From assembly GCA_007126035.1 (NCBI GenBank), contig SLCC01000022.1:19777-83776 (forward strand): 64,000 bases of DNA, in the 5' to 3' direction. The position numbers and the translations under genes were made by a program. The stretch is from Gemmatimonadota bacterium (GTDB lineage Bacteria; Gemmatimonadota; Gemmatimonadetes; Longimicrobiales; RSA9). The notes under the pieces are model-generated. The model had not been told where the DNA came from. It worked only from the letters and a program-made list of their open reading frames with translations, and made no database searches. Shown here piece by piece: positions 13,838 through 62,947 of the stretch. How positions within the stretch are numbered: the first letter of the stretch is position 1; each line of letters begins with the position of its first letter.

Positions 13838-13878
13838 ACGGTCATCGCAAGATCGACAGACGAAGGAGACTTGAGTCC

Positions 13879-34900: not shown

Positions 34901-36876
34901 TCGGCCCGCTCGTGCGCCGGCAGGTCCGCCGCCGCCAGCCTCCAGTCGAGTTCCATGAGGTGGGGAACGAGGCGCATCAACATGCTCGCCTTCTCCACGA
35001 TGTCGGATAGCTCGATGGCCCGCTCCTTGTCATAGCGGGCTCGAAGGCGAGTGCCGTCCAGGTCCACATGGAAGCCCAGGCGACGCAGGATGTGCTGGAT
35101 CCCGGACACGCCCAGGTCCGGATGCTCGGCCATCTCGTACTGGCTGACGGCGTAATACTCCAGGTCTATCATGCCCCCCCTGCGCGGCGGAGACAGATCG
35201 AGCCGGATGAAGGCGGGGTGGTTACGGAACGAAACGTAGAACTGGACCTCGGTGTCGTATACCAGGATCCGCACCGTGGGCAGGCTCGTGTATCCATGGA
35301 TGAGATGGTGCTTGAACGACTCCACCACGAGCCGCACCGCCAGCGGTAGGCTGGAACCTTCCTGCTCCTCGAAATCCAGGTACCGGACGCGTTGGACGAC
35401 GGCAGGATCGTGGCCGTCCCGGAGCAGTAGCAGGTCCACCGTCTGGTTGGCCGCGCCGCCGGAGCCGAAGAGCCGGAATGCATGCCTGAGACCACGCTGG
35501 TGCAGGTAGCGTTTCAGGCCGTGTAGGGTCCTCACCTCCTGTATCGACCCGGGGTCTTCGAACGCCTGGATCGAGTAGGCTACGTCCATTGGCAGGACGC
35601 TCCCGGGGTCGTCTGCCCGTTCCACCGCCCGGTCCACCTCCCGCCTCAGCTCAGCGAATCCGGCCGACACCTCGGCCGCCTCTGGATCGAAGCCGGAGAA
35701 CAGGCTCGTGTGGTCGGCGATGACACGTTCCAGCAGATCGAGGATACGGCCAGCGCGCTCCGCCGTAACCGGTGCCACCTCCAGGATCTCGCCCAGGAGG
35801 ACGGCGTGGTCCACGGAGAGGCGCCGGAACCTGGCTATCCGGTCACTGTCCAGCTCCGTTCCCACGGGTGTGGCTTCCTCGGTGCCCCGGGCCATCACCG
35901 CCCATCCCGTCCAGCGCCCGGCCGTCTCGAAATCTCGATCTATGACGCGCGCCTCGTCAGGCCTCAGGGCGAATGGGAAACTGCCCTCGATCCGCGTCAC
36001 CGTCACCGGCTCCGCCACCAGCTCATCGGCCACGCGGGGCCAGCCCAGGCGGGCGACGACGGCGGCGAGGCGGTCGCGGCCCAACACGGATTCAGACGCC
36101 TGCATGGTTTCCAGTGATTCCACCCGGCGAGCCAGACCCGGCGTGAGGGCGACGAGGTCTCCGTGAGTGGCACGGGTGTACGCCAGGTGGTGAGCCAGGG
36201 CACTGGCAGCCGTCGAGCCGAGGACCCGCCGGATTCGCTCTTCCGGCGCAGGCTCATCATCGGCGTCCAGCAATCGGGCCGCGAGAAGCCTGACAGGGAG
36301 CGGGATGGATGGCTCCAGGAACCGACCAATCGGGTCACCTGGGACCAGGGGCAGGCGCGGGTCGTCTACGCTGGAAAGGAGCTGGCCCAGGTCGTCCGGG
36401 ACCTGGGCGTCAGGGGCCGACGGCAGCGCGCAGGCCACTGCAAGGGCCAGGTCCAGATCGGACTCGATGTGACCATCGCGGGCCGCAGCGAGTGTCAGAC
36501 TTAATGCCTGGTCGCGGATCTCCTGCGACCGGGCGGACAGGAGCTCGACAAGCACGGGTGCCGATGAGTCGAGTGCGTGGGCCTGTTCCGCCAGGAGCCG
36601 GAAAAGAGCCGGTGCGGCACGGCTGCGGCTGTCCCGGAGGAGCGAGGCGAGGCGGACGAGGACTGGGACGGGCGATTCCGAGGGTGGCAGGGCCGCCTGG
36701 ATCTGGCCAAACGCCTCCTCCACGCGCTTGGGGTCTCCCAGGGCCACGCCCATATGAGACTCGATGGTCTCCAGATGGTCGGTAATATCGGGACTGGCGG
36801 CTGCGGTCGTCACGTCAGCAGCCACGGAACCAATCTCCCTGCCCTGGTTCTGTCCCATGCCAGTTCCCTCCGCCAC
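31915..36876 (-). CDS. Giant multidomain protein with a ~900-aa unassigned N-terminal region, a PEP-utilising-enzyme phosphohistidine swivel domain, a ~260-aa helical linker and a PPDK_N-type ATP-grasp domain
   Basis: This is a single uninterrupted 1,653-codon frame with GC3-rich codon use. The GTG at 36876 is the first possible start. ATG 36858 (M7) has a GGAGGG Shine-Dalgarno sequence 8 nt upstream and is the more likely start. Its stop TGA overlaps the maeB ATG (ATGA). Domain motifs are listed in the two sub-features below. Confidence 0.8.
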   Translation of the reverse strand: MAEGTGMGQNQGREIGSVAADVTTAAASPDITDHLETIESHMGVALGDPKRVEEAFGQIQAALPPSESPVPVLVRLASLLRDSRSRAAPALFRLLAEQAHALDSSAPVLVELLSARSQEIRDQALSLTLAAARDGHIESDLDLALAVACALPSAPDAQVPDDLGQLLSSVDDPRLPLVPGDPIGRFLEPSIPLPVRLLAARLLDADDEPAPEERIRRVLGSTAASALAHHLAYTRATHGDLVALTPGLARRVESLETMQASESVLGRDRLAAVVARLGWPRVADELVAEPVTVTRIEGSFPFALRPDEARVIDRDFETAGRWTGWAVMARGTEEATPVGTELDSDRIARFRRLSVDHAVLLGEILEVAPVTAERAGRILDLLERVIADHTSLFSGFDPEAAEVSAGFAELRREVDRAVERADDPGSVLPMDVAYSIQAFEDPGSIQEVRTLHGLKRYLHQRGLRHAFRLFGSGGAANQTVDLLLLRDGHDPAVVQRVRYLDFEEQEGSSLPLAVRLVVESFKHHLIHGYTSLPTVRILVYDTEVQFYVSFRNHPAFIRLDLSPPRRGGMIDLEYYAVSQYEMAEHPDLGVSGIQHILRRLGFHVDLDGTRLRARYDKERAIELSDIVEKASMLMRLVPHLMELDWRLAAADLPAHERAELADRWADFLERHGLIPPQDEPLPGTTGSGLIGRVRRELGRAGIRLPLPAPTVRTGGAGQLDLERAVLDPLRSAVVRGEVVARNGQLMPAPRHSYRREHEAVRLARILAGPPARLREAIRTASVIGPLERWLRFLPAGSIQGYPVERATLALRDGDATLFVLRDDRGKARLAFATRGDVPYRVRDRDSTAWKRPAEIRIAELMRLLVRDNYRCPDEDQPVELKPDRVAEVRDLFATKNPWPPSAPYPGERSVRALPAAPGRASGIVRIAQPGRDPAEFEGAVFIAPTIQPSDSPCLARSVAAVSTGGGTLSHVGLLALELGKPSVIVQGSWRQLRPNEHVLTLRRTELRERSGRVRSLEVRCWTRVRDCEVDVREGELVVVDSDAETLSVLGSDREALVLHQGFRDLGSAERAVGAARDDRALLEARGALLRVSHQLNRALRRMDRPALARYAVRELFSGQAAPGAAAATSERRALLDVLCRSPRLGPAAQTARDQAVVALLHQLRAAVQIARAVTPLLTQPLPVLFIRLTAVRLRESLRSVSVMEQGLPDGRVGAATASPDRSLPELDRLSIDRLAEFRSALLHELDALARQQPGDPRILFALRAIGWMDQAAPTEGDPRDQEVLERARAAALAIEGARRVAADSRLIVGWDESGLGMESIIGRKAASLGEVARVLPSGMVPPWFVITDRAFHLALGSHVRVQTGETIPLQDAIDQVLARSELDCSGKFGCIRKLWLDARFPESMEAEILDSYHGLTAEDSAPSSVAIRSSALEEDGPTATWAGQFDTFLHVTGDDSVLRHVRLAWAALWSPRALHQRGQSNTAGTPGGGGIMVQRMVDSRVAGVVLTVDAVAGEMRELVVNVGLGLGQGIVSGTVDADEIHIARTDRRGGPLQLRYRVGDKRERCVFDATRGSGTRRIETVFHQRLRPALEYTELETLVETALDLEAAFFEPLDLEFALEGSNLYILQARPLPLFRTALDETLQRYPLKESRG
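31972..32964 (-). other. Domain: PPDK_N-type ATP-grasp nucleotide-binding domain, aa ~1305-1635 of the giant ORF
   Basis: The matching motifs are IIGRKAASLGEV (compare GGKNASLGEM), VPPWFVITDRAF, VAIRSSALEEDGPTATWAGQFDTFLHV (compare VAVRSSATAEDLP.ASFAGQ.ETFLNV), WAALWSPRALHQR and IMVQRMVDSRVAGVVLTVDAV...NVGLGLGQGIVSGTVDADE. These follow the N-terminal domain of PEP synthase closely. Confidence 0.75.
33742..34164 (-). other. Domain: PEP-utilising enzyme mobile (swivel) phosphohistidine domain, aa ~905-1045 of the giant ORF
   Basis: The stretch ALPAAPGRASGIVRIAQ...FEGAVFIAPTIQPSDSPCLARSVAAVSTGGGTLSHVGLLALELGKPSVIV...VREGELVVVDSDAETLSVLG aligns by eye with the PpsA/PPDK/EI swivel domain (G.A.G......ILV...T.P......A.A.VT..GG.TSHAAI.AR..GIP). 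The predicted catalytic His is residue 970 (codon 33967..33969). Confidence 0.75.
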
Positions 36877-39285: not shown

Positions 39286-39635
39286 GATGGCCTCCTCGTG
39301 TTGGGCGTCAGAGCACCATGCGTAGGCATGCAGCTTTCACACCCGCTCGCCAACGACCCAGGCGCGATGTCGATTGTGGACGCCCCAGCAATGAGCGCTC
39401 GACGACCGTCTCCGCGGGGCACGGATCGGCCGGTAGGGTGTGGTGTATACCCTGTCGCCACGGTCCTCAGGCTGTCCCCGTGGTTTGCCTTACGGCGGGT
39501 AGTCGAACGCCCCACCTGTCCTTTGTAGGGGATTCCTACCTTGCCAGGGGATGTTTCCGGAGCGAAATGGCGGGACTATTCGGGATTGAGGGTGGGGAAA
39601 GCTGCCGCTATCTTCTGGCACAATGATTATTTGCG

Positions 39636-50063: not shown

Positions 50064-52088
50064 GTGACCAGGACCAGGTGGACGAGCAGCCTCGTTCCCC
50101 GGGCCAGTTCTCACGCTCCCATAGATGGCATCGATTTTGCCCCACCAGCCCATAGCATGCACCTAGTTCTCCACAGCTCTGAGCCCGGGAGACTCGTGAA
50201 TCCGGTGGCGCCAGCACCTCCGCTCCGAACCCTCGTCACCACCCTCGCCCTGACCATCACTGCCGGCAGCGCCGCCGCCTGCGACCGGGAAGAACCTCCA
50301 GACCCCATGGCGGCGGACACGGCACGTGTCCAGATTCCCGCTCCCGCGTTCCCCAGCGTCTCCGACCAGCTGCTGACAGCAGGCGCTGGCGCGAACTGGC
50401 CGGCACCCGGCGGCAACCTGGAGAACCACAGCTTCTCACCCCTGGATCAGGTCCACACGGGTAATGTGGGCGAGCTCGTGCCGGTGTGGGTCTACTCGAC
50501 CGGCGTGGAGGGGGCGCTGGAGACGAGTCCTGTGGTGGTGGGTAATACGTTGTACGCCACGACGGCGGGTGGTCGGGTGCTGGCGCTGAACGCCGCGACT
50601 GGCGAAGAGCTCTGGACGTACGTCCCGGAGCCAGAGACCGTGACCCTCTGCTGCGGCCCGATAAACCGAGGGGTATCAGTTTGGGGGACCAAGGTTTATG
50701 TCGCCACGCTCGACGCCCGACTGGTAGCCCTGGATGCTCGAACGGGCGAGTCCGTCTGGGAGGCCGACCTCGCCGATCCGGAAGCGGGTTACAGCTCGAT
50801 CATGGCGCCGCTGTCGGTTGACGGCCGCGTGTTCCTGGGTGTGTCAGGAGAGCGTTACGGCATTCGTGGGTTCGTGGCGGCATTCGATGCGGAATCGGGC
50901 GAGGAGCTCTGGCGGTGGCATACGATACCTTCGCCTGAGGATGAGGACTGGACCGGCTCTTGGGTGTTGACGGACCCCTTCGGCACGGAACTGAACCGGA
51001 ACATCGAAGAGGAGCAGGAGCTGGCGGAGCGTCTTACGGAGCGTTGGCGTACCGGTGGAGGCGGGGTAGCCACGACCCCTGCATACGACCGTGCCACGGG
51101 TCGTCTGTACGTGAACACAGAGGGCCCGGCTCCGCTGGTGGACGGCCTCGCCCGACCGGGAGACAACCTGTACTCCGGATCGCTGGTGGCACTGGACGCC
51201 GAGACGGGGGAACTGGACTGGCACACGCAATACCTGCCTCAAGACGTATGGGGCCTCTCCGGCGGCAGCCCGCCCTTCCTGTTCGACAGGGGAGGGGACC
51301 GATTCGTGGCGTTCGCGGGGCGGACGGGCTGGGTCTATGTGTTCCGGGCTTCGGACGGCCAGCCCGTTCTCAGGTCGGACAACTTCGTGCCGCAGGAAGG
51401 CATGTTCGCACGCCCAACGCCGGGTGAGGCTGTCAGGGTGGCGCCGGGGCTCAACGGCGGGAATGCGGGCTCGCCGGTAGCCTACGACGCACGTACCGGA
51501 ATGGTCTTCATCGGCGGCGTACATCAGCCCATGGTCTACTCCGTGGAGTCGCAGCGGTACGAGCGGGGACGCCTCTGGCTTGGCGGCTCGGTGTTGTTCC
51601 CGCCGGATGAGGACCAGTGGGGGACCGTCACCGCCATAGACCTGGCGGATGGCACTATCGCGTGGCAGCGCCGCACGCCGGCACCGGTGCACTCCGGGGC
51701 CCTGACCACCGCCGGGAACCTGGTCCTGGTGGGGCAGGGGACCGGTACGGTGGATGCCCTCCACGCAACCACTGGGCAACTCCTCTGGCAGTTCAACACC
51801 GGTGCAGGTGTCCACGGGAGCCCCGTTACGTACAGCGTAGGCGGGACCCAGTACATCGTAGTGGCCGCTGGTGGAAGTCACCACTTCGCCACGTCACCAG
51901 GCGACGACATCTATGCGTTCGCCCTGGCTTCGGTCCGGCCACGCAAGACGGTGGATGACTATCCCACGACCCAATACCAGCGCTATGGACCCGAGGCCCC
52001 GATCCCCGCAGAACAGCGACCCCAGGGCCCGCAAAGGCGTGACACCATCCCCGACACCCAGGCCGCCCCCGGTACCGGGGGGCGTTGA
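50064..52088 (+). CDS. PQQ-dependent (quinoprotein) dehydrogenase, alcohol/methanol dehydrogenase type
   Basis: It has eight-bladed propeller W-motifs (e.g. TSPVVVGNTLYATTAGGRVLALNAATGEELW). It has the vicinal cysteine pair VTLCCGPINRG, characteristic of type I quinoprotein ADH/MDH. The more likely start is ATG 50157, which precedes a lipoprotein-like signal (TLALTITAGSAAAC). Confidence 0.8.
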   Translation: MTRTRWTSSLVPRASSHAPIDGIDFAPPAHSMHLVLHSSEPGRLVNPVAPAPPLRTLVTTLALTITAGSAAACDREEPPDPMAADTARVQIPAPAFPSVSDQLLTAGAGANWPAPGGNLENHSFSPLDQVHTGNVGELVPVWVYSTGVEGALETSPVVVGNTLYATTAGGRVLALNAATGEELWTYVPEPETVTLCCGPINRGVSVWGTKVYVATLDARLVALDARTGESVWEADLADPEAGYSSIMAPLSVDGRVFLGVSGERYGIRGFVAAFDAESGEELWRWHTIPSPEDEDWTGSWVLTDPFGTELNRNIEEEQELAERLTERWRTGGGGVATTPAYDRATGRLYVNTEGPAPLVDGLARPGDNLYSGSLVALDAETGELDWHTQYLPQDVWGLSGGSPPFLFDRGGDRFVAFAGRTGWVYVFRASDGQPVLRSDNFVPQEGMFARPTPGEAVRVAPGLNGGNAGSPVAYDARTGMVFIGGVHQPMVYSVESQRYERGRLWLGGSVLFPPDEDQWGTVTAIDLADGTIAWQRRTPAPVHSGALTTAGNLVLVGQGTGTVDALHATTGQLLWQFNTGAGVHGSPVTYSVGGTQYIVVAAGGSHHFATSPGDDIYAFALASVRPRKTVDDYPTTQYQRYGPEAPIPAEQRPQGPQRRDTIPDTQAAPGTGGR

Positions 52089-52173
52089 CTCGACCCGCCA
52101 CGACCGGTAACTTCCGCGCCTGTTTACGGTTGCCACGCAGTCGCGTGGCCCACACCCGCGCGAGCACAAGACA

Positions 52174-53151: not shown

Positions 53152-53775
53152 TCACCAGGGGGCGGGCTCTGCCCCGGAGAGGCTGGTTAGGGCGCTGGTG
53201 ATGAGGCGCTGTGTTTCCGGGAGCGCCGCATCCCGCTCCCGGCGCGTGTGGAGGGCGGGAAAGCGCATGGGTTCGCCGAAGCGGAGGGTCAGGTTCCCTC
53301 TCTTGATTCGGTGGTGCCAGCGAGGCCAGATGTGGTATGCGCCGGAGATCCCGCACGGTACAACGGGCGCGCCCGCCTTGAGGATTAGGCGGAGTGTCCC
53401 GCGTCTGAGGGTCTGGAGGCGCCCGTCCCAGGTCCGCTCTCCTTCTATATATATGCCGACGCCGTGGCCCTCTGACAGTATGCGGAGGGAGAGTCTCACC
53501 GCCTGGGGGTCGATCTCGAACCGTCGCACCGGATAGGACTTGAGGGTTTTCATGACGGCGCCCGCGGTGGCGCTGTTGAACTGGGTGCTCTTCGCCATGG
53601 TGTGGATGGGTCGTGGCACGACGGCCTGGACGATGACCGGGTCGAGGTAGCTCTGGTGGTTAGCGATGAGGATGAAGGGTCCCTTCCGGGGGATGTGGTG
53701 GAGGCCTTCGACGTGAACGCGTCCGATGAGGGGCCACAGAGTGCGGGCGAGGATCTGGGCTGATCGATAGATCAT
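53152..53775 (-). CDS. 1-acyl-sn-glycerol-3-phosphate acyltransferase family (PlsC/LPLAT) protein
   Basis: It has the HX4D motif (IANHQSYLDP) and later FIEGERT- and P-V-type blocks (IYIEGERTWDG, VVPCGISG). It is 207 aa. Confidence 0.8.
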   Translation of the reverse strand: MIYRSAQILARTLWPLIGRVHVEGLHHIPRKGPFILIANHQSYLDPVIVQAVVPRPIHTMAKSTQFNSATAGAVMKTLKSYPVRRFEIDPQAVRLSLRILSEGHGVGIYIEGERTWDGRLQTLRRGTLRLILKAGAPVVPCGISGAYHIWPRWHHRIKRGNLTLRFGEPMRFPALHTRRERDAALPETQRLITSALTSLSGAEPAPW

Positions 53776-54383
53776 CGATCTGTCGTGACGCGAGGTTGGA
53801 ATTCGACTATCTCCCCTCTACCGGTCCGTCGATAGAAGTCCCGGAGCGCGGCGTGCAGGAGGAGTTCCCAGAGGAAGATAGAGTCGTCGAGGAACCTGAA
53901 GGATACCAGCGGTTGCCCCCTGCCCTTGATCTGGAGGGTGTTGGAGCTGCCCTGGACGGCCGTGATGTCTTCGAAGGCCCAGGTCCTGGCGGTCCCCCCT
54001 GCGTCCAGGGTTTCGTATATGGCCGAGTCCCTAGTCAGGCTCAACGATCCCTTTACGGCTGGGCCGTACCTTTCGATCCGGTTCAGGAAGCGGCCGCCGC
54101 CGCGGACATTGGCAGACCCGACGACCTCCTGAGCCAGGACGTGGGCGCGCCGGAACGGTTCTCCCTCTGCCGCTGCCCGCTCCAGCAGCTCTTCTGGAGC
54201 AGGCAGCCGGTCCATCCATTCGGCGGCAGTCCGCTCCACGACGGCACCGTCAGGATACCTGGCATCGATGTGCCCGCCCCGCCCCCGGCTGAACACCACG
54301 CCGCAGGTGCATGAACCTTCCGGGCCTATCGCCCCTACCTCGCCGCAGTCGGGGCACGCCCAGAGAAGGTCGGACAGCGCCAT
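53772..54383 (-). CDS. Hypothetical protein with an N-terminal zinc ribbon and an uncharacterised C-terminal domain
   Basis: Starting at ATG 54383 gives MALSDLLWACPDCGEVGAIGPEGSCTCG (CxxC...CxC). The C-terminal ~90 aa are beta-rich. It has an ATGA overlap with plsC and starts 1 nt after the GT2 stop. Confidence 0.5.
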   Translation of the reverse strand: MALSDLLWACPDCGEVGAIGPEGSCTCGVVFSRGRGGHIDARYPDGAVVERTAAEWMDRLPAPEELLERAAAEGEPFRRAHVLAQEVVGSANVRGGGRFLNRIERYGPAVKGSLSLTRDSAIYETLDAGGTARTWAFEDITAVQGSSNTLQIKGRGQPLVSFRFLDDSIFLWELLLHAALRDFYRRTGRGEIVEFQPRVTTDR

Positions 54384-54384
54384 C

Positions 54385-55146
54385 TCAGAGCCTGCCGAAG
54401 AGGTCCCGGATCCGTAGGGCCCAGACCCGCCACACCGCCTCCCAGATGACCCGCTTCGACATCTTCGATTCTCCCACGTCCCTGTCTGCAAACACTATAG
54501 GGATCTCGCCCAGGGCGAACCCGGCCCGCCAGGCCCGTAGGTTCATCTCTATCTGGAAGGCGTAGCCTTCGGACCCGACGCGCTCGAGGTCGATGGCCTC
54601 GAGGACCTCGCGTTTAAAACATTTGTAGCCGCCGGTGGCGTCCGTGACGGGGAGGCCGGTTACCAGGCGGGCGTATATGTTGGCGGCGTAAGACAGCAGG
54701 AGGCGCGGGATCGGCCAGTTGACCACGGTGACGCGGCCGTGGAGGTATCTGGATCCCAGCACCACGTCGAACTCCCGCAGCGCCTCGAGGAAGAGGGGGA
54801 TGTGAGCGGGGTCGTGAGAGAAGTCGGCATCCATCTCGAAGACGGCGTCGTAATCCCGTTGCAGCGCCCAGCGGAATCCGGCCACGTAGGCGGTACCGAG
54901 CCCGAGCTTGCCCTCCCTGTGCATGACGTGGAGGCGGTGCTCGCTAACGGCCATGTCGTCGGCGACCCTGCCGGTGCCGTCCGGGGAGGCGTCATCGATC
55001 ACCAGCACATCGAGTCGCGGGTCCTGTTGCAGGATGAGGGGCACGAGGCGCGGCAGGTTGTCGCGCTCGTTGTACGTGGGGACGACGACGAGAGCCCTCT
55101 TCAGCTTCGCTTGCATAGGGTCTTGAGTTGGTTCATCCCGCTGCAT
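54385..55146 (-). CDS. Polyprenol-phosphate mannose synthase-like GT2 (Dpm1/Ppm1 type, soluble)
   Basis: It carries VVVPTYNERDNLPRL, VLVIDDASPDGTG, GKLGLGTAY and FEMDADFSHDP motifs. It is 253 aa with no C-terminal TM helices. Confidence 0.8.
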   Translation of the reverse strand: MQRDEPTQDPMQAKLKRALVVVPTYNERDNLPRLVPLILQQDPRLDVLVIDDASPDGTGRVADDMAVSEHRLHVMHREGKLGLGTAYVAGFRWALQRDYDAVFEMDADFSHDPAHIPLFLEALREFDVVLGSRYLHGRVTVVNWPIPRLLLSYAANIYARLVTGLPVTDATGGYKCFKREVLEAIDLERVGSEGYAFQIEMNLRAWRAGFALGEIPIVFADRDVGESKMSKRVIWEAVWRVWALRIRDLFGRL

Positions 55147-55191
55147 AGGTTGCGGCGGTCGGAAGTTACCGTCTTCTCCAGCCTGCTACAA

Positions 55192-56394
55192 GTGAAGGTT
55201 CTCTACATCGTCACGGCGTACGACCGTCGACCAGGTGACGGCATAACGCCGTGGCTGGTGGAGACGATCCATCGCCTCGGCGGGCTGGGCGTCGAGGTCG
55301 AGGTACTGGCGCCATCGTATTGCGGCCTTGGCAGCGCCGTTGTCGAGGGAGTGCAGGTGCATCGGTTCCGGTACGCGCCCCGACGAGTGGAGGATCTCAC
55401 CCATGATCAGACGGCACCTGACCGGGTCCGGGAGCGGCCGTCGTACCTGGGGCTGTTGCCCGGTTACGCCCTGGCTGGCTCCGTGGCTGCGGCCCGGGTC
55501 ACCCGACGGGGCGGCTTCGATGTTGTCCATGTCCACTGGCCCCTGCCCCAGGCCCTCCTGGGGTGGTCGGCCCGGCGTGCAGCTGGTATCCCGCTGGTCT
55601 GCTCCTTCTACGGGGTGGAGCTGACCTTTGCCCGTCACAGCCGCGTGCCGTTTCTGCTGCCGTTCCTGCGTCGTGCCATCCGCACCGCGGACGCCGTGAC
55701 GGCGATTTCTACCTACACGGCGGATCTGGTTCGCGGCGTTCATGATAGGTCGGTGGAGCTGATACCCTTCGGCGCCACCGTGCCGATCCCGGAGCGGCTG
55801 CCCTCCCCTGCCCCGTCGCCGCCATTCCGGCTGCTGTTCGTGGGCCGGCTGGTGGAGCGGAAGGGTGTTCGCCATCTCCTTGATGCAGTTGCGGCTGCCC
55901 GTGCGTCGGGCGCGGACGTCGTTCTGGACGTGGTGGGAGAGGGTCCGAGTCGCGGGGCGCTCGAGCAACACGCAGAGAGAGTCGGGCTCGGTGCGGCTGC
56001 CCGTTTCCATGGCTTTGTCCCTGACGACCAACTGATCCGCCACTACGAGGATTGCCACACCTTCGTTCTTCCTGCGGTATTCGACGAGAAGGGGGACGTG
56101 GAGGGCCTTGGAGTGGTGATCATAGAGGCGCTGGCGTACGGCCGCGGTGTGATAGCCAGTGCGGCCGGTGGGATAACCGACATCGTGCGACATGACGAGA
56201 CGGGGCTCCTGGTGCCACCGGGAGATGTGGCTGCTCTCACCCGGGCGATCCTGGCTCTGGCCCGGGACCCGGAGAGGGTGAACCGGCTGGGCGGGACGGG
56301 ACGGGTCTATGTGCAGGAGCGTTTCTCCTGGGACGCGGTCACCGGCAGGCTCACCGACCTCTACGCCCGGCTCACGGGCCGTGGCGTCAGATGA
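55192..56394 (+). CDS. GT4-family glycosyltransferase
   Basis: It has a GT-B fold with the C-terminal EX7E region (EGLGVVIIEALAYGRGVIASAAGGITDIV). It starts at GTG 55192 (VKVLYIVTAY...). The track ORF 54739 is an extension antisense to the GT2 gene. Confidence 0.8.
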   Translation: MKVLYIVTAYDRRPGDGITPWLVETIHRLGGLGVEVEVLAPSYCGLGSAVVEGVQVHRFRYAPRRVEDLTHDQTAPDRVRERPSYLGLLPGYALAGSVAAARVTRRGGFDVVHVHWPLPQALLGWSARRAAGIPLVCSFYGVELTFARHSRVPFLLPFLRRAIRTADAVTAISTYTADLVRGVHDRSVELIPFGATVPIPERLPSPAPSPPFRLLFVGRLVERKGVRHLLDAVAAARASGADVVLDVVGEGPSRGALEQHAERVGLGAAARFHGFVPDDQLIRHYEDCHTFVLPAVFDEKGDVEGLGVVIIEALAYGRGVIASAAGGITDIVRHDETGLLVPPGDVAALTRAILALARDPERVNRLGGTGRVYVQERFSWDAVTGRLTDLYARLTGRGVR

Positions 56395-57308
56395 GCGCTC
56401 CGGGCGCCCGCGGCCCCGGCCGTGTCAGCCGCACGGACACCAAGCATATCGAGCCCCGGTACCTGGCGCTTCTGGAGGCGGAGCGGAGCCGCTGGTGGGA
56501 CGATTCGAATTTCGACACCTGGAAGAACCTGTACGTCAGCGAGTACGCCCGGGGGCACCAGGTGGTCAACACCATCCACAGGTACTTACCGGACTTCCAG
56601 ATCGCCGGGTCGGATGTGCTCGACGTCGGGTGCGGCGACGCAGGCGTGCCCATCGCCTTCGCTAAGAGAGGAGCCCGGGCGGCGGGGATCGAGCCGGATC
56701 ACGCCAGCATCGCCCGCGGGCGGGTACGGGTCCAGGAGCACGGTGTCTCGGTGGACCTGAGGGAAGGCGTGGCCGAAGAGCTTCCCTACCCCGACCGCTC
56801 CTTCGACCTTGTCGTGCTGGACAACGTGCTCGAGCATGTCCGGGACCAGCGCCGCACGCTGATGGAGATCCACCGGGTGATCAGGCCTGAGGGCCTGCTT
56901 TATCTGGTAACACCCAAGCCATTGGCGTTGTACAGCTTATGGAACGACCCCCACTACGATATGGCAGGCCTGGTGCTGCTGCCCCGCAGGCTACAGGTCT
57001 GGTATTTCGAGAAGGTGCGCGGTGGCGGCGAGGGCTCCTACGACGTGGGCCATATCCCCACCCGTCGTCGTCTGCGCCGGCTCTTGCGGGAGGCGGGCTT
57101 CGAGACGGTGGTGGAGCCCCGAGAGCTATGGATCCATTACCTTCGGGAGCGGATAGCCGAGCCCGGTGAGGTCCGACCGGGTCTGAAGCGACGGCTGGCT
57201 GGTTGGCTGCGGCGGCGAGAATGGCCGTTCCGCAACCCGGTCATGCGCTGGTTCTGGGACGTGGCGCTGGGCTCGAACATCTTCATCTCGCGAAAGGGCT
57301 CCTCGTAG
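56391..57308 (+). CDS. Class I SAM-dependent methyltransferase
   Basis: It has SAM-binding motif I (VLDVGCGDAGVPIAFAKRGARAAGIEPD) and motif II/III spacing (FDLVVLDNVLEHV). It has an ATGA overlap with the upstream GT4. Confidence 0.75.
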   Translation: MSAPGARGPGRVSRTDTKHIEPRYLALLEAERSRWWDDSNFDTWKNLYVSEYARGHQVVNTIHRYLPDFQIAGSDVLDVGCGDAGVPIAFAKRGARAAGIEPDHASIARGRVRVQEHGVSVDLREGVAEELPYPDRSFDLVVLDNVLEHVRDQRRTLMEIHRVIRPEGLLYLVTPKPLALYSLWNDPHYDMAGLVLLPRRLQVWYFEKVRGGGEGSYDVGHIPTRRRLRRLLREAGFETVVEPRELWIHYLRERIAEPGEVRPGLKRRLAGWLRRREWPFRNPVMRWFWDVALGSNIFISRKGSS

Positions 57309-58414
57309 TGCGTGTTCTCCACCTGATCTATGACGACCGTGGGAACCCGTGGGTGGCAGGCGGCGGCGCGGTCCGGGCGTTCGAGATCTACCGCCGCCTC
57401 TCCGGCCAGGTGGACGCGACGATCGTCACGGGGTCGTACCCTGGAGCGAGTGCCGGCGAGGAGTTCGGGGTGACGTTCAGGCGGGTGGGTGCCCGGCGAC
57501 CATACGCCTGGAGCCGACTCAGCTATGCTCTGAAGGCCAACCGGATCCTGAGGAGGGAAGCGTATGACGTGGCGGTGTTCGACTATTCCGCCTACACGCC
57601 TATCTTTCTGCCGGAGCGCCGGCCGGTGGGCATGGCGGTGCACCACCTTACCGGCCCGACTGCACGGGGCCGGTGGGGTAGTCTGGTGGGCGCGGGTATA
57701 GCGGCGCTGGAGCGGTCGATGCTGAGGCGGGCTCGCCATGTGAGCCTCTCTGCCGCGGTGGTCGAGCCGGAGGTGAGGCGCCTCGCGCCGCAGGCCGAGG
57801 TGGTGGTGGTCGGCGCTGGTGTGGGCGAGGAGTTTTTCGAGTTGACGCGACGGGAGGAGGACTACCTGCTCTTCTTCGGGCGACTGGATGTCTTCCAGAA
57901 GGGTCTGGACGTTCTGATCGACGCGTTCCGGATGATCCGCTCCGACCGTCCGACGCTGCGGCTCCGGATCGCGGGTCGTGGCAAGGACGCGGCGCAGGTG
58001 GTGCGCCTAGTAGAGCGGGCCGGCCTCTCCGGTGCCGTGGAGATCATGGGACCGGTATCGGACCGGGAGCGACTCGAGCTGCTCGGCGGCGCTCTGCTCA
58101 TGCTCATGCCGTCGCGCTTCGAAGGCTTCGGGCTGGTGGCGGCCGAGGCGATGGCGGCAGGCGTGCCCCTGGTGGCCAGCGACGCGGGCTCGCTGCCGGA
58201 AGTCGTGTCGTACCCTGAGGGCGGCGTGATCGTCCCCGCGGGTGATGCGGGCGCCCTTGCCGCCGGTGCGACTGCACTGCTCGAGGACCGGCCTCGCCGG
58301 ACCAGGCTGTCACGGACGGCGCGGGAGACGGCACGGAGGTTCACGTGGGACGCGGTGGCGGACCGGCACCATCGCTTTCTCGAGCTCATAGCCGGCATTC
58401 GTACCGTAGACTGA
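57308..58414 (+). CDS. GT4-family glycosyltransferase
   Basis: It starts at GTG 57308 (VRVLHLIYDD...). The C-terminal motif is EGFGLVAAEAMAAGVPLVASDAGSLPEVV. Confidence 0.8.
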   Translation: MRVLHLIYDDRGNPWVAGGGAVRAFEIYRRLSGQVDATIVTGSYPGASAGEEFGVTFRRVGARRPYAWSRLSYALKANRILRREAYDVAVFDYSAYTPIFLPERRPVGMAVHHLTGPTARGRWGSLVGAGIAALERSMLRRARHVSLSAAVVEPEVRRLAPQAEVVVVGAGVGEEFFELTRREEDYLLFFGRLDVFQKGLDVLIDAFRMIRSDRPTLRLRIAGRGKDAAQVVRLVERAGLSGAVEIMGPVSDRERLELLGGALLMLMPSRFEGFGLVAAEAMAAGVPLVASDAGSLPEVVSYPEGGVIVPAGDAGALAAGATALLEDRPRRTRLSRTARETARRFTWDAVADRHHRFLELIAGIRTVD

Positions 58415-58415
58415 G

Positions 58416-60809
58416 ATGCCGAAGAAGCCGACACGGAAGGAAAGCAGGGCCACGCCGCCTCCGGCGGCACCGCCCATTCTCAACCTGCCACTCGCCACGG
58501 GCATCTTCTTTGGCCTGGCCTTCGTGTACTTCCTCCCTGCCCTGCTCCCCGGCCAGGGGATCTTCGGTACCGACTACCTGGCAGGTGGTTACCCCTTCAG
58601 CGACTTCATTGCCGGTCGCCTGCGGGACGGCGAGCTGCCCATGTGGGTGCCGTACGTCTATGGCGGGCTGCCGCTCTTCGCCAACGCCGGCAGCACGTTC
58701 CACCCGGTCTGGCTGCTGGCGGCGCTGACATTGCCCGTGGGCGCCGTACTGCCCGTGCTCTTCCTTGTCCAGTTCGGGCTGGCAGGACTGGGGATGTTCC
58801 TGCTCCTCCGGGAGCTGGAGGTCAGGCGCTGGATCGCATTCCTGGGCGGGCTGGCCTTCCAGTTCACCGGCCTCCTCACGTCCTACGTGTACGCCGGTCA
58901 CGACGGCCGCGTAATGGTGGCGAGCCTGGCGCCAATGTTCTTCTTCTTCATCCACCGTCTGGTGCGGACCGGCCGCCTGGGTCCGGCGGTCGGGGCGACG
59001 GCGACGCTGGCGTTCTGCTTCCTCTCCTTTCAGATCCAGAGCAGCTACTACCTGCTGCTGGGTGGCCTGTTCTGGGGGATCTTCGCCCTGGCCATGATCC
59101 GGGTGGGCGGTAGGGCCCTGGCAGGGCGACTCGTCCTGGGCTTCGGGTCGGTGGCTGTGGCCTTCATCGTCGCGTCGGTCAACTTCCTGCCGTTCATGGG
59201 ATACGTGGACGCGTCACCCCGGGGCGGCGAGGAGGCTCGTGGCTTCGAGTACTCGGTGTCCTGGGCCATGCCCCCTTCCGAGTTGGCGGCCCGGGCGGTG
59301 CCGGAGTGGGAGGGGGCCAGCGTCATCGATCCCAACACCGGTGAGCCCCTGTTCCCAGAGTACCGCGGCGAGAACCCGTTCAAGCTGCACACCGAATACG
59401 TCGGCGCCTTCGCCCTGCTCCTCCTTATCCTGGGCGTCTGGTACGGGCGACGCGACCCGTACTGGTGGTTCTTCGTGGCTCTGGGCGTCTTCACCCTGAG
59501 CATATCGTTCGGGGGGCATACGCCCATCTACCGGCTCTATTACGACTTCCTCCCCGGCACGCGTCTGTTCCGAGCCCCGTCCATATCGTTCTTCCTGGTC
59601 TCCACGGCGTTGGTGGCCATGGCCGGGCTGATCCTGGAGCGTGTCGCGACGATCCGGGACGTTGCCAGCACCCGTCGTCGCGATCGCCGTGACGACACCA
59701 GTCTGGCCCAAGCCAGCTGGATCACGGCCGGGTGCTTTGCCATCGGGCTCCTCCTGGTCCTGGTGGGCAGCGCTGCCGGAGGGGACGCTGGTCGGGGCAT
59801 GGGGTTCGTACGGTTCGGGACATTCCTCCTGCTCACCTCGGGACTGCTCTGGGTCTGGCTCAACGACCGGCTGTCCACCGGGGCCGTGATCGTGGGGCTG
59901 GCCCTGGTTACGGTGGCCGACCTCTGGCTCGTGGGCCGTCGCTTCCTCCATACGGTGCCGCCGCCGCAGGTCTGGTTCCAGGCTGATGACGTCGTCCAGG
60001 CCCTTCCGGCCACGCCCGGAGCCGACAGGGTGTGGGTGCTCCCGGTGGGACCACAGTACCGCGGCACTGGTAACTATCTGATGGCCCACCGTATCGAGCA
60101 GGCTGGTGGCGAGCACCCCAACCCACTCCAGCGCTGGTATGAATACGTGGGGGAGGGTGCGGGACACTACGTGGACTGGTCCAACTTCCTGGGGGAGAGC
60201 CCGACATACCGCCATGCCGCCAACATCCGCTGGATCGTGAGCATGGTCCAGCTCGAAGGCGCCCCGCAGTTCGAGGGGGTGCGCCTGATCCACGGCGGAC
60301 CCGGCGCCCTGGTCTACGAGGACCCGAATGCCCTGCCCAGGGCGTTCCTGGTGGGCGGGGTGCGGGTGTCCGAAGACCCCGACGGGGCCCTTGCCGTTCT
60401 GGCGGACCCCGACTTCGACCCGCTGGCGGAGGCGGTGGTCCACGAGCATCCCCGCGTGCCCCTGGAGGCGGGACACGTGGTGGGTGCGGCAGACATCACC
60501 ACCTGGTCGCCCGACGAGGTCCGGATATCGGTGCAGTCCGACCGTCCGGCCCTCCTGGTCCTGGCGGACAACCACTACCCGGGCTGGCAGGCGGAGGTCG
60601 GCGGCCAGCCGGCGCCCATTCTCCGTACCAACCACACCTTCCGCGGCGTCGAGGTTCCCGCGGGGCAGCACGAGGTGGTGTTCCGGTTCAGACCCGCCCA
60701 GATGCTGGCCGGCTTCTGGATCTACCTGGTGGGAATGCTGCTGTTGGCCGCTTACGGAGTGGTGGCGGCGGTCCAATACTGGCGAGCTAGGCCGTCGGTG
60801 GCCTCATGA
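58416..60809 (+). CDS. YfhO-family GT-C membrane glycosyltransferase
   Basis: It is 797 aa with more than 10 TM helices in the first ~480 aa. The periplasmic C-terminal domain ends with the YfhO-typical block DNHYPGWQAEVGGQPAPILRTNHTFRGVEVPAGQHEVVFRFRP and a final TM helix. Confidence 0.75.
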   Translation: MPKKPTRKESRATPPPAAPPILNLPLATGIFFGLAFVYFLPALLPGQGIFGTDYLAGGYPFSDFIAGRLRDGELPMWVPYVYGGLPLFANAGSTFHPVWLLAALTLPVGAVLPVLFLVQFGLAGLGMFLLLRELEVRRWIAFLGGLAFQFTGLLTSYVYAGHDGRVMVASLAPMFFFFIHRLVRTGRLGPAVGATATLAFCFLSFQIQSSYYLLLGGLFWGIFALAMIRVGGRALAGRLVLGFGSVAVAFIVASVNFLPFMGYVDASPRGGEEARGFEYSVSWAMPPSELAARAVPEWEGASVIDPNTGEPLFPEYRGENPFKLHTEYVGAFALLLLILGVWYGRRDPYWWFFVALGVFTLSISFGGHTPIYRLYYDFLPGTRLFRAPSISFFLVSTALVAMAGLILERVATIRDVASTRRRDRRDDTSLAQASWITAGCFAIGLLLVLVGSAAGGDAGRGMGFVRFGTFLLLTSGLLWVWLNDRLSTGAVIVGLALVTVADLWLVGRRFLHTVPPPQVWFQADDVVQALPATPGADRVWVLPVGPQYRGTGNYLMAHRIEQAGGEHPNPLQRWYEYVGEGAGHYVDWSNFLGESPTYRHAANIRWIVSMVQLEGAPQFEGVRLIHGGPGALVYEDPNALPRAFLVGGVRVSEDPDGALAVLADPDFDPLAEAVVHEHPRVPLEAGHVVGAADITTWSPDEVRISVQSDRPALLVLADNHYPGWQAEVGGQPAPILRTNHTFRGVEVPAGQHEVVFRFRPAQMLAGFWIYLVGMLLLAAYGVVAAVQYWRARPSVAS

Positions 60810-61759
60810 CCACGCTGCGGCGGTGGCGATCGGTACTGGGCCTGCTGCTGGTCCTGGCCGCCGCCGCGTTCCTCGGCCTCACCATCGCCAGACACTGGCG
60901 GCAGGTGGTGGTTTTCGATTGGGACATCGACTGGGTCCTGCTGGTGATCAGCGTACTGGCCCTGGCAGGCGTCTTGGCCTGGGGGGTCGTGGTGTGGAAG
61001 CTGGTGCTGGACCGGTTCGAGCACCCTCCCATACCACTCGTCCAGCTCCTCAGAATATGGTACCTGTCGAACCTGGCCCGCTACGTACCCGGCAAGATCT
61101 GGCAGTTCGTCGGCGCCGCCGAGCTGGCACGGCTGGCGGGGATATCCCGCGCCGTTATCCTCACCTCGATGGTCGTACACATGGGGTTCTCCCTCCTGGC
61201 AGCCGCCATCACATCCCTGCTGGTCCTTCATGTGAATGGTCTGCCCGAGGGCGTCCCCATTGCGGGACTGCTCGCCCTCGCCCTTGCCGCCTTCGCCCTG
61301 GTACACCCGGGCCTCCTCAACCGCGCCCTGGCATTGGTAGCCAGGGTGACCCGGCGGAACGTCCTGGGCTGGGACGGCCGGTGGCGCGACGGCGTACTGC
61401 TGCTCACGCTGTCCGTGGTCTCGTGGATGTTCTACGGAGCCGCCTTCACCCTCTTCTTCCATTCCGTGGTGGGCACCACCCCCGGCGCCATCCTCCCCCT
61501 GGCCGGCGTGAACGCCCTTTCGTTCCTGACGGGATACGTGGTGTTCCTGACCCCGGCCGGGCTGGGAGCCCGGGAGGGTGTGATGGCCGTGCTCCTGCGA
61601 CCATTCGCACCAGCCGCCGTCGCCGCAATGGTGGCGGTACTGTCCCGCCTGTGGACCATGGTCGCCGAGTTGTTGGGTGCGGCGATCCTGATCCTCATCA
61701 GCGGGACCGGAAGCCACGCCGACTCGGCGCACGTGGGCTCCCGGCCGAAACGACGTTAG
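60806..61759 (+). CDS. UPF0104 / LPG-synthase-TM (MprF flippase-domain-like) membrane protein
   Basis: It is 317 aa with ~8 TM helices. The motifs YLSNLARYVPGKIWQFVG and FLTPAGLGAREG are typical of the flippase-like domain family. It has an ATGA overlap with yfhO. Confidence 0.7.
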   Translation: MTTLRRWRSVLGLLLVLAAAAFLGLTIARHWRQVVVFDWDIDWVLLVISVLALAGVLAWGVVVWKLVLDRFEHPPIPLVQLLRIWYLSNLARYVPGKIWQFVGAAELARLAGISRAVILTSMVVHMGFSLLAAAITSLLVLHVNGLPEGVPIAGLLALALAAFALVHPGLLNRALALVARVTRRNVLGWDGRWRDGVLLLTLSVVSWMFYGAAFTLFFHSVVGTTPGAILPLAGVNALSFLTGYVVFLTPAGLGAREGVMAVLLRPFAPAAVAAMVAVLSRLWTMVAELLGAAILILISGTGSHADSAHVGSRPKRR

Positions 61760-61780
61760 CCGACAACGGACCGGCCGGCC

Positions 61781-62800
61781 TCAACCCAATGGCGGACTGA
61801 CCCTGCGCCGGTCGTCATCTGCCGCGTCCGACCGGTTCAGATGACGTCTGAGATGATCGAGCTCCGTGTGCTGTTGGGCCATCATCTCCGCCACCAGGCC
61901 GAACCCGAACAGCAAGAATCCCAGCGTCTCCAGCAGTATCACCAGGTACAGGAGCGGCCGGAACCCGAACGGTGGCATGACCTGGGCGATCCGGAGCACG
62001 ATGGTCACGAGCCCCACCAGGACTCCCAAGCCCGCAGTCACCATCCCACTGAGCCCGAAGAACATCATGGGCTTGCGAGAGAAGAAGAGGAAGAACGCCA
62101 CCGCCATGAGGTCCAGCAATCCCACCACGATCCGGCTGTGCGCCGAATACTTCGCCTCGCCATGGCGGCGGGGATGTAGCTTGATATCGATCTCGGTGAC
62201 AGTGAAGCCGCGGTCGTGGGCGATCACCACGAAGAAACGATGCCAGTCGTGGCGTAGCGGGACCTCGTCCAAAACCTCCCGCCGGAACGCCTTCATGGAG
62301 TTCAGGTCGGACACCGGAACCCTGAACAGGGTCCGGCTCATGCGGTTGTACGTGCGTGAGACACTCGCCTTCTCGTACTCCCCCACCTTGCGGCCGGTCA
62401 CGATGTCCCAACCCTCGGATAGCTCGTCCAGGTAACGGGGGATCTCTTCAGTATCGTGCTGGAGGTCAGCATCGTAGAGGACCAACCACTCGGCGTCGGT
62501 AGCCTCAGCACCCGTCAGCAAGGCTTCCGTCTTCCCGAAGTTGCGGCGATGGCGCACCACCTTGAACCGATCCCAGCCAGTGGCCGCCGCCTCGGCTCGC
62601 TCCGCCGTACCGTCGGTTGAGCCATCGTCTACCAGCACCACCTCGCCCTCGAGGCCATGCCGCTCAAACGTGCCACGAAGCTCGCTCACCAGCTCCGGTA
62701 CGTTCTCCGCCTCATTGTACGCCGGGACTATCACCGCGAACCGACGCCGCACCAGCCCCCGGGGAATGGATCTGTCCGGCACCCGCCGGGCCGCTACCAT
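61781..62800 (-). CDS. Polyprenyl-phosphate glycosyltransferase, GT2 with C-terminal TM helices (GtrB/ArnC/CsbB type)
   Basis: It carries FAVIVPAYNEAENVPEL, VVLVDDGSTDGT and VLYDADLQHDTEEIP motifs, then two or more TM helices (AVAFFLFFSRKPMMFFGLSGMV...; LLYLVILLETLGFLLFGFGLVAEMM). The start is taken at ATG 62800. The frame is open to 62923. Confidence 0.8.
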   Translation of the reverse strand: MVAARRVPDRSIPRGLVRRRFAVIVPAYNEAENVPELVSELRGTFERHGLEGEVVLVDDGSTDGTAERAEAAATGWDRFKVVRHRRNFGKTEALLTGAEATDAEWLVLYDADLQHDTEEIPRYLDELSEGWDIVTGRKVGEYEKASVSRTYNRMSRTLFRVPVSDLNSMKAFRREVLDEVPLRHDWHRFFVVIAHDRGFTVTEIDIKLHPRRHGEAKYSAHSRIVVGLLDLMAVAFFLFFSRKPMMFFGLSGMVTAGLGVLVGLVTIVLRIAQVMPPFGFRPLLYLVILLETLGFLLFGFGLVAEMMAQQHTELDHLRRHLNRSDAADDDRRRVSPPLG

Positions 62801-62947
62801 CCTTCGTACCAGGGGAAATGGATCGTGGAGGGCGGAACCATATCGTGACTCGCCATAGCCGTACCAATACCGCCGCCACCGGCCACGGTCAAGCACCCCA
62901 CGACGGGTGGGACGCCAGTACACCCAACGCCCACCCCGGCCTGCTTG

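Follow-up and report, generated by a model that had tools for sequence, protein, structure and literature searches.

A two-armed gene cluster recurrent in Gemmatimonadota and beyond probably encodes a transmembrane glycosylation pathway of the cell envelope

Precedents for three-component glycosylation are provided by CsbB/GtcA/YfhO and the Gtr systems. In such Gtr-type systems, represented by GtrA/GtrB/GtrX in Shigella and Salmonella, CsbB/GtcA/YfhO in B. subtilis and GtlA/GtlB/GtcA in Listeria, co-located genes code for a family 2 glycosyltransferase (GT2) with C-terminal transmembrane (TM) segments, a flippase and a YfhO-family glycosyltransferase of the GT-C fold; the GT2 produces a polyprenol-phosphate-linked sugar, which is flipped and then transferred by the GT-C enzyme beyond the cytoplasm. 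Here we describe a cluster of nine genes with comparable components in a 64,000-nt stretch of a Gemmatimonadota genome (the window; contig SLCC01000022.1), at positions 53152-62923. It departs from the Gtr pattern in several respects. Its flippase candidate is a UPF0104/PplT protein rather than GtrA or GtcA, and none of the nine cluster proteins matches GtrA (PF04138). There is an additional, soluble Dpm1-like synthase, and two family 4 glycosyltransferases (GT4) and a methyltransferase are part of the operon. Furthermore, the host is a diderm with lipopolysaccharide (LPS) and without teichoic acids, and the YfhO Pfam match is marginal and restricted to the C-terminus.

Other described systems resemble the cluster in part. 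As for the ArnC/ArnT modification of lipid A with aminoarabinose, ArnC is the closest solved relative of the convergent GT2 at the end of the cluster, ArnT is among the top fold matches of the GT-C enzyme, and the GT2 gene appears to be transcribed with genes for LPS transport and 3-deoxy-D-manno-octulosonic acid (Kdo). However, ArnA/B/D or ArnE/F genes are absent, this GT2 scores 112 bits on the ArnC model NF007986 against a cutoff of 529, and the GT-C enzyme, which ends in a large beta domain on the periplasmic side, is not a member of the ArnT/PMT_2 family. In archaea, AglD-type dolichol-phosphate (Dol-P)-hexose GT2-UPF0104 proteins are encoded beside PMT/STT3-like GT-C enzymes (PMC5898192). 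GT2, UPF0104 and GT-C form a conserved neighbourhood there as well, with UPF0104 a predicted flippase, but the archaeal proteins serve S-layer N-glycosylation, whereas the components in our cluster are three separate bacterial proteins joined to GT4s and a methyltransferase. The assembly of lipid-linked oligosaccharides in eukaryotes and archaea (Alg2/Alg11 GT4, Dpm1, Alg3/9/12 GT-C) likewise combines cytoplasmic GT4 steps, flipping and Dpm1-fed GT-C steps; in contrast, the cluster has no phosphoglycosyltransferase or oligosaccharyltransferase, and ALG9 is a marginal fold match of its GT-C enzyme (E 0.04).

The first-pass annotation of the locus had drawn a parallel with the actinobacterial pathway of phosphatidylinositol mannosides, lipomannan and lipoarabinomannan (PIM/LM/LAM; PimA, PimB', PatA, Ppm1, PimE/MptA/MptB). 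The two are alike in logic, with cytoplasmic GT4s for priming, polyprenol-phosphate (polyprenol-P)-sugar synthases, here including a candidate of the Dpm1 family, a flippase-like protein and a periplasm-facing GT-C enzyme for extension outside. The parallel goes no further than this general logic. The acyltransferase of our cluster is PlsC-type and not a core member, homology to PatA and PimE finds no support, the GT4s show no specific PimA/PimB affinity in searches of solved structures, and the GT-C enzyme is YfhO-like with an AftD/ArnT/PglB-like fold. Literature searches on YfhO in Gram-negative bacteria, on Gemmatimonadota glycolipids or LPS, and on YfhO with polyprenol or mannosyltransferase yielded no characterised counterpart. 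Gemmatimonadota are abundant in soils, and their envelope chemistry is essentially unstudied.

We propose that the cluster, which is native and conserved, probably specifies a transmembrane glycosylation pathway of several components, centred on the periplasm-facing YfhO-type GT-C enzyme and serving a glycoconjugate of the envelope. In more general terms, a role in building or decorating a glycan or glycolipid of the cell envelope is very likely, with sugars carried on lipids and a membrane transferase that faces outward. Direct observations concern the gene content, the families and folds of the proteins, their topology, and the conservation of both the gene set and the promoters. From family, fold, topology and linkage we infer the catalytic steps and the sugars, which species is flipped, and the final acceptor, which may be a membrane glycolipid or lipoglycan, an LPS core or outer glycan, or a protein.

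Recurrence and variation of the module

The open reading frames (ORFs) listed for the window were assigned to families by profile searches (Pfam, NCBIfam). All nine cluster ORFs were present where the first-pass annotation had placed them, with the families and the two-armed operon layout that it had named. They form two divergent units, and within each arm neighbouring genes overlap by 4 nt or 1 nt or are separated by 1 nt, indicating translational coupling. According to a hydropathy scan, six encode soluble proteins without TM segment and three encode membrane proteins. 

The YfhO family is very large, as 46,620 cluster representatives match at E<=1e-3. A YfhO alignment was run against a single genome for each GTDB species and gave 362 relatives, of which 80 loci of about 22 kb were kept, and twelve window proteins were mapped onto these by tblastn. 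Upstream counts below refer to the 48 loci with at least 5 kb upstream of the YfhO gene, downstream counts to 44 loci, and counts for both flanks to 34 loci. The question raised at first pass, whether the cluster is conserved in the phylum, has a clear answer: it is conserved across the phylum and beyond, in these 80 species loci. The Longimicrobiales-type layout starts on the minus strand with the Dpm1-like gene, in some loci accompanied by zinc-ribbon and PlsC-type genes on the same strand and a TPR_21 gene on the plus strand beyond them. Facing it on the plus strand are GT4a, an optional methyltransferase gene, an optional variable insert, an optional GT4b, then the YfhO and UPF0104 genes. 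After 0-3 kb, the ArnC-like and RpoN genes follow on the minus strand. Upstream of YfhO, GT4a is found in 38 of the 48 loci, the Dpm1-like gene in 27, GT4b in 22, and the zinc-ribbon and PlsC-type genes in 12. Downstream, 34 of the 44 loci have the ArnC-like gene, 33 have UPF0104, and 26 have RpoN within 6 kb. GT4a is the plus-arm member that most often accompanies YfhO. When both flanks are available, 31/34 loci have some GT2 within 6 kb on either side of YfhO, 28/34 have the GT4 (two more have a different GT4) and 29/34 have UPF0104. 

The module also occurs in reduced and rearranged forms. In 17 Gemmatimonadaceae loci, it has shrunk to GT4a, YfhO and ArnC-like genes that abut on one strand with no rpoN nearby, the ArnC-like orthologue (53-61% identity) lying directly behind YfhO. 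Outside the phylum, a Zixibacteria locus (L076) has the order UPF0104-MT-YfhO-Dpm1-GT2, where MT is the methyltransferase gene. An unclassified genome (L081) has GT4-MT-GT4-UPF0104-MT-YfhO-Dpm1 and another (L084) an ArnC-like gene at some distance from GT4-MT-UPF0104-YfhO, and the myxobacterium Archangium (L079) has GT4-GT4-YfhO-UPF0104 followed by a convergent ArnC-like gene. UPF0104 adjoins YfhO in all four of these loci, and the Dpm1-like gene directly follows YfhO in L076 and L081. In L081, the next gene (11734-13911) codes for a 725-aa fusion of GT2, CoA_binding_3 and Bac_transf (phosphoglycosyltransferase) domains, which hints at an undecaprenyl-diphosphate (Und-PP)-linked route in that lineage. 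The functional core is thus a GT4, YfhO and a polyprenol-P-sugar GT2, usually with UPF0104. 

Might these genes be chance neighbours that serve unrelated pathways? The PlsC-type gene, the TPR_21 gene and the adjacency to rpoN do vary between lineages. However, start and stop codons overlap, the same gene set is found in at least four distant lineages, an ArnC-like or Dpm1-like gene relocates to abut YfhO, and 24 species share an invariant bidirectional promoter region. The gene arrangement is far beyond chance and the block recurs in dozens of species; synteny already contradicts this explanation, which we consider hardly credible. Horizontal acquisition was also rejected, as the GC content is even across the region (0.62-0.70) and the synteny spans the phylum; the uniform GC content indicates that the cluster is native.

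Between GT4a (or the Dpm1-like gene) and YfhO lies a slot of variable content. It holds genes for a UDP-GlcNAc 2-epimerase, a polysaccharide deacetylase and a different GT4 in one genome (L006), a GDP-mannose 4,6-dehydratase and an O-methyltransferase-like protein in another (L026), and another methyltransferase together with a Big_1 Ig-like lipoprotein in two more (L023 and L031). Methyltransferase genes of at least three unrelated types occupy the slot in 20/52 loci, and 3/4 loci from outside the phylum have one. Methylation is therefore frequent but not obligatory, and the O-methylated sugar suggested in the first-pass annotation is plausible without being a constant feature. Such cassette-like variation is typical of surface-glycan loci whose composition varies between lineages. 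The gap between the UPF0104 and ArnC-like genes accommodates unrelated inserts as well, namely an IS66 transposase (L082, 7609-9108), an ATPase or an extra GT2.

Several genomes have two or three YfhO paralogues, often each with its own GT4 (L067/L072, on one contig; L073, 13135-16442; L075, 13006-16271; L032, 6313-7383). The GT4-YfhO pair thus appears to be a duplicable unit. One contig labelled Actinomycetota (L057) has Gemmatimonadota synteny, with identities of 52% for YfhO, 74% for the Dpm1-like protein and 72% for RpoN; its bin label is probably wrong.

Predicted enzymes and candidate products

The YfhO-family protein (58416-60809, plus strand; 797 aa) matches PF09586 with 34.3 bits (cutoff 28.5). 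Homologues bear the name YfhO family; the close ones all have a precomputed PF09586 match, and many match PF10131 in addition. Its architecture is that of a GT-C enzyme, for which a multi-TM core and an acidic residue conserved in the first loop outside the cytoplasm are expected: there are at least ten TM helices, a periplasmic beta-rich domain at about residues 510-760 and a C-terminal TM helix, and D53, just past TM1, is invariant in two alignments. Foldseek searches with the AF2 model (pLDDT 84.7, pTM 0.88) retrieved AftD (7e-7), ArnT (1e-5) and PglB (8e-5), and also AftA, EmbB, STT3 and PMT, down to 3e-3; the 50 PDB fold matches listed do not include PimE. Among these matches, the GT-C fold of YfhO is common only to enzymes that use polyprenol-P(P)-sugars. 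The link to such a donor is one of genomic linkage, as the ArnC-like GT2 gene abuts YfhO in 17 loci and the Dpm1-like gene does so in L076 and L081. YfhO is predicted to be a periplasmic transferase using a polyprenol-P-sugar.

Two GT2s might supply this donor. The Dpm1/Ppm1-like protein (54385-55116, or up to 55146, minus strand) matches PF00535 with 103 bits and has no TM segment. Its closest solved relative is the Dol-P-Man synthase of Pyrococcus (5mlz, E 1.3e-28). This match is at the family level, NCBIfam equivalog cutoffs were not reached, and the protein is a candidate polyprenol-phosphate-hexose synthase. In length and kind it is presumably similar to the Ppm1 catalytic protein of M. 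smegmatis, which is soluble and stands alone. The Dpm1/Ppm1-like protein is 60-81% identical across the phylum and 54-58% identical to the proteins of Zixibacteria L076 and of L081. The second GT2, ArnC/GtrB-type, is encoded on the minus strand (61781-62923, or up to 62800), with an ambiguous start at ATG 62800 (339 aa) or GTG 62923 (380 aa). It has three C-terminal TM segments and is a paralogue of the Dpm1-like protein (30% identity). Its closest solved relatives are the ArnC structures 9hwj/9bhc/8vxh (best E 2.4e-31), followed by GtrB (sll0501; 2e-15), both over the full length. Given the NF007986 score mentioned above, we classify it as an ArnC-related paralogue rather than an equivalog, and it is predicted to be a polyprenol-phosphate-sugar synthase. 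On the PgfS model it scores 96 bits, also below cutoff.

Its gene is the last of a minus-strand string, pyrG-kdsA-kdsC-kdsD-lptC-lptA(-like)-lptB-rpoN, that extends past the right end of the window on an identical contig (L001, 14533-22394). A relative with a YfhO of 49% identity (L003) keeps the order of the string, and there the GT2 gene begins within the stop of rpoN. This setting raises the possibility that the cluster decorates LPS in the manner of ArnC/ArnT or GtrA/B/X: the ArnC-like GT2 would make an undecaprenyl-P-sugar, the latter would be flipped, and YfhO would add the sugar to lipid A, core or O-chain, with the GT4s and the methyltransferase building the core or outer glycan of the same LPS. 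In addition to the string and the frequent proximity of RpoN, the ranks of ArnC as the closest solved relative of the GT2 and of ArnT as the second-best fold match of YfhO are in favour of it. So are the sugar-gene cassettes, which differ by lineage like O-antigen loci, and the carriers, as all the nameable ones belong to phyla generally regarded as diderm. However, the Gemmatimonadaceae ArnC-like gene sits away from rpoN, behind YfhO, with no lpt/kds genes nearby, and the gap between UPF0104 and the ArnC-like gene takes the unrelated inserts described above. Moreover, no ArnA/B/D-type sugar-modification genes and no ArnT were found among the cluster proteins or flanks, there is no WaaL, and the GT4s match LPS-core NCBIfam models weakly (33-50 bits against cutoffs of 385-618). 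We consider LPS decoration possible, though on balance unlikely.

GT4a (55192-56394, plus strand; 400 aa; PF00534 126 bits, plus PF13579/PF13439) is predicted to be a cytoplasmic retaining GT-B enzyme, and GT4b (57308-58414, plus strand; 368 aa; PF00534 125 bits) a second cytoplasmic GT4. The start of the latter is GTG 57308, which corrects an earlier 57305. In the PDB, GT4a matches the sucrose-phosphate synthase (SPS) Tll1590 (1e-23, 87 bits), PimB' (6e-21, 78 bits), BshA, MshA and PimA (3e-13, 53 bits), while GT4b matches GlgA (4e-19, 72 bits), MshA (71.5 bits), PimA (2e-18, 70 bits) and WaaG (2e-7). The likeness to PimA and PimB' thus looks like generic GT4 similarity, specific for neither protein. 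All NCBIfam models, those of glycolipid synthases included, score below their cutoffs for both GT4s. The two proteins are 36% identical over 174 C-terminal residues only, which correspond to the donor-binding half; as they have only that half in common, they probably use different acceptors. The class I SAM methyltransferase encoded between them (56391-57308, plus strand; 305 aa) matches Methyltransf_11/23/25 with 70-81 bits and no NCBIfam family at cutoff. Orthologues of the window type are present at 8 genome loci. Its target is probably a sugar, which it would O-methylate.

The UPF0104/LPG_synthase_TM (PplT) protein (60806-61759, plus strand; 317 aa) matches PF03706 with 52.5 bits (cutoff 33.4) and TIGR00374 with 28.8 bits, below the cutoff of 43.2. 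It has eight TM segments, and the first 4 nt of its gene are the last 4 of the YfhO gene. It is a candidate flippase for a lipid-linked sugar or a glycolipid. A flippase role of UPF0104 is a literature prediction, and the sole experimentally supported substrate of the UPF0104/MprF flippase domain is glycerophospholipid (PMC5898192; 10.1101/2022.03.11.483950). The UPF0104-like protein OmrA of M. xanthus (MXAN_4426), for which mutants exist, might belong to an equivalent cluster.

In the minus arm, the Dpm1-like gene is followed by genes for a zinc-ribbon protein and a PlsC-type acyltransferase, which always occur together as a PlsC-zinc ribbon-Dpm1 triple on one strand, in 14 loci in all. The acyltransferase (53152-53775, minus strand; 207 aa), whose gene is the last of the arm, has PF01553 as its sole Pfam match (89 bits), an HX4D motif and no TM segments. 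Its sole PDB match is PlsC of T. maritima (5kym, E 6e-14), whose N-terminal membrane helices it lacks. The 120 listed homologues are all at least 60% identical, and no second PlsC was found within the window. No PatA chain is among its PDB matches at E<=0.01; PatA-type acyltransferases presumably belong to the PF03279/LpxL-like family. As for the zinc-ribbon protein (53772-54383, minus strand; 203 aa), it has neither a Pfam nor an NCBIfam match. All the organism-named members among its 122 homologues come from Longimicrobiales or Gemmatimonadota. The N-terminal CxxC...CxC pattern (C10, C13, C25, C27) and a C-terminal EFQP motif are invariant. The AF2 model (pLDDT 94.6) has an N-terminal zinc ribbon and a PH/PTB-like domain, for which Foldseek retrieved the PH domains of GRK2 and kindlin and the PTB domain of Numb (E about 1e-4, TM 0.3-0.5). 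Judging from this model, it is possibly a membrane or partner adaptor for the soluble minus-arm enzymes. Both genes are add-ons to the Dpm1 unit specific to one subclade, so that the acylation suggested at first pass is not a core trait of the product.

The likeness in logic to PIM/LM, or to the assembly of lipoteichoic acid (LTA) anchors, leads to a second candidate product, a membrane glycolipid or lipoglycan, in line with the first-pass annotation. The GT4s would add sugars to a glycerolipid, either diacylglycerol or the head group of a phospholipid. The methyltransferase would O-methylate a sugar, UPF0104 would flip the product and YfhO would extend it from two donors, with acylation by the PlsC-type enzyme in some lineages. 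The GT4, GT-C and Dpm1-like triad as the minimal conserved unit, the tandem GT4s with their unlike acceptor halves, and the absence from the cluster of a phosphoglycosyltransferase, Wzx, Wzy and WaaL all argue for this possibility, as does glycerophospholipid as the only experimentally backed substrate for the flippase domain. AftD, the top structural match of YfhO, elongates a lipoglycan or arabinan and bears soluble beta domains, and the PlsC-type gene is translationally coupled to the Dpm1 unit in the 14 loci that have it. Conversely, the missing match to PatA, the absence of PimE from the 50 fold matches, the lack of specific PimA/PimB affinity and of any glycolipid-synthase model at cutoff all speak against it. 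So do the acyltransferase and methyltransferase, neither of which is a core member, and the phosphoglycosyltransferase fusion beside the module of L081. On balance this reading is unlikely too, and decoration of LPS, which the first-pass annotation also named, is as likely as a free glycolipid.

A third candidate acceptor is a periplasmic or outer-membrane (lipo)protein, which YfhO would O-glycosylate in the way of actinomycete PMT/Ppm1 or streptococcal PgfS/PgfM. The fold matches of YfhO include PMT and STT3/PglB, and the ArnC-like GT2 has the score on the PgfS model given above. Genes for Big_1/invasin-type Ig-like proteins with a lipoprotein-like signal lie inside the cluster in L023 (7006-8127) and L031 (7179-8114), between the methyltransferase gene and GT4b, and these proteins could be glycosylation substrates or surface partners. 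In L084, FG-GAP proteins flank the module. Nevertheless, the window cluster has no candidate substrate gene, the PMT matches are weaker than those of AftD and ArnT, and single-sugar O-glycosylation needs neither two cytoplasmic GT4s nor a methyltransferase. Protein glycosylation is quite unlikely.

Whatever its acceptor, the proposed pathway would run in four steps. The soluble Dpm1/Ppm1-like and the membrane-anchored ArnC/GtrB-like GT2s would load sugar onto polyprenol phosphate at the cytoplasmic face, the ArnC/GtrB-like synthase presumably sharing a transcript with rpoN and the lpt/kds genes. On a lipid acceptor, GT4a and GT4b would assemble the portion of the glycan that is made in the cytoplasm, and the SAM methyltransferase would contribute O-methylation. 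The UPF0104/PplT-type protein may then carry the lipid-linked intermediate to the outer leaflet, and YfhO would move the carrier-borne sugar(s) onto the glycan in the periplasm. Two facing, overlapping promoters in a 75-nt spacer would drive both arms.

Several points weigh against this proposal. We found no biochemical or genetic data for cluster members in the literature. The PF09586 match of YfhO spans residues 693-769 only, aligned to the C-terminal end of the model. For the UPF0104 family, flipping of a polyprenol-linked sugar is a prediction, and the reduced module of Gemmatimonadaceae lacks UPF0104. Why one GT-C enzyme should have two donor synthases is unexplained; one of the synthases may serve a GT-C enzyme encoded elsewhere. 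The PlsC-type enzyme may merely be a housekeeping lysophosphatidate acyltransferase. Finally, there is no initiating phosphoglycosyltransferase, Wzx/Wzy, ABC exporter or WaaL ligase in the cluster, and for this reason the lipid acceptor of the GT4s is undefined.

A bolder scenario, which we regard as doubtful, is that Gemmatimonadota, Zixibacteria and some Myxococcota make an undescribed membrane-anchored lipoglycan or glycolipid beside LPS. It would be primed by GT4s on a glycerolipid, flipped by UPF0104, and elongated or decorated by YfhO from two polyprenol-P-sugar donors. Its sugars, O-methylated ones included, would vary between lineages through cassette replacement, and its genes would be expressed from two mutually exclusive facing promoters. 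If so, lipomannan or lipoteichoic-acid-type polymers would have their diderm counterpart in this product, and the large orphan UPF0104 family would gain its first assigned substrate outside MprF. More generally, the module is among the most conserved envelope gene blocks of Gemmatimonadota and is also found in other poorly known diderm phyla. Knowledge of its product would provide a function for YfhO-type GT-C enzymes outside the decoration of Gram-positive teichoic acids and a defined cargo for the UPF0104/PplT family. It would also reveal whether LPS-bearing bacteria also make lipomannan-like or LTA-like lipoglycans.

Facing promoter-like elements in the divergent spacer

Of the 35 loci with a Dpm1-like gene, 24 retain it head-to-head with GT4a. 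In an alignment of the spacer from 24 species, the invariant columns are CTTG, TAnnTT, AAnnTA and CAAGTG only. They make up two facing TTGnnn-N17-TAnnTT elements (55122-55194), at positions fixed relative to the GT4a start. For the plus-strand promoter-like element, P(+), the -35 box is at 55123-55128 and the -10 box at 55146-55151. For its minus-strand counterpart, P(-), the -35 box is the complement of 55186-55191, abutting the GTG of GT4a, and the -10 box is the complement of 55163-55168. A distance of 11 nt separates the -10 boxes, so that the predicted start sites cross, at about 55156-55158. This suggests that only one RNA polymerase at a time can occupy the spacer.

These elements bear on the start of the Dpm1-like protein, which is 253 aa long from ATG 55146 or 243 aa long from M11 (55116). 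The former codon overlaps the invariant -10 element; together with the N-termini of homologues and one public gene call, this favours M11. The divergent spacer noted at first pass as 45 nt (55147-55191) does exist, but with the start at 55116 it measures 75 nt (55117-55191) and is wholly filled by the two promoters.

The strict motif CTTG-N20-TAnnTT occurs in the window only at the two spacer sites (0.17 expected). The relaxed motif TTG-N20-TAnnTT has five matches against 0.41 expected, all upstream of co-oriented ORFs. The three additional copies, at 16320-16348, 39586-39614 and 52085-52113, all on the plus strand, lie 20-75 nt upstream of a radical-SAM/DUF512 gene (about 16420), an unannotated ORF (39636) and the TPR_21 gene (52174), respectively. 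Since these extra matches are located just upstream of co-oriented ORFs, the relaxed motif looks like an ordinary promoter type of this genome, and it may be a general promoter consensus of the lineage. Presumably, it is akin to the TTTG/TAnnTTTG promoter type of Bacteroidetes. A standard sigma-70 scan predicted no promoter in the region, and the sites emerged only from cross-species conservation. Matches to the sigma-54 promoter consensus are not enriched, and the spacer contains none. The invariant spacer offers a testable case of a conserved overlapping divergent promoter and a hint at the promoter consensus of the phylum.

Organism and genomic setting

YfhO homologues of the window protein carry the names Longimicrobiales, Longimicrobiaceae or Gemmatimonadota, and the organism is a Longimicrobiales-type Gemmatimonadota with LPS genes. 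That it contains lipid A, as stated in the first-pass annotation, is borne out by LpxK in the window and by KdsA/C/D and LptC/A/B just past its end. The window also encodes a DUF374 protein, MurJ, BshC, PlsY and GpsA. The DUF374 and LpxK genes adjoin at 3411-5088 (plus strand), a lipid A 4'-kinase context. Rfam and tRNA scans found nothing in the cluster region, and terminators there are at chance level.

The BshC homologue (Rossmann-like_BshC, bacillithiol synthesis; about 7195-8814, plus strand), encoded between the genes for a SPOUT methyltransferase and MurJ, suggests that this Gemmatimonadota makes bacillithiol. Its presence prompted us to consider a BshA identity for the two GT4s, which we rejected at 91-92 bits against a cutoff of 274. 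Finally, a very long ORF of 1653 aa occupies positions 31915-36876 on the minus strand.

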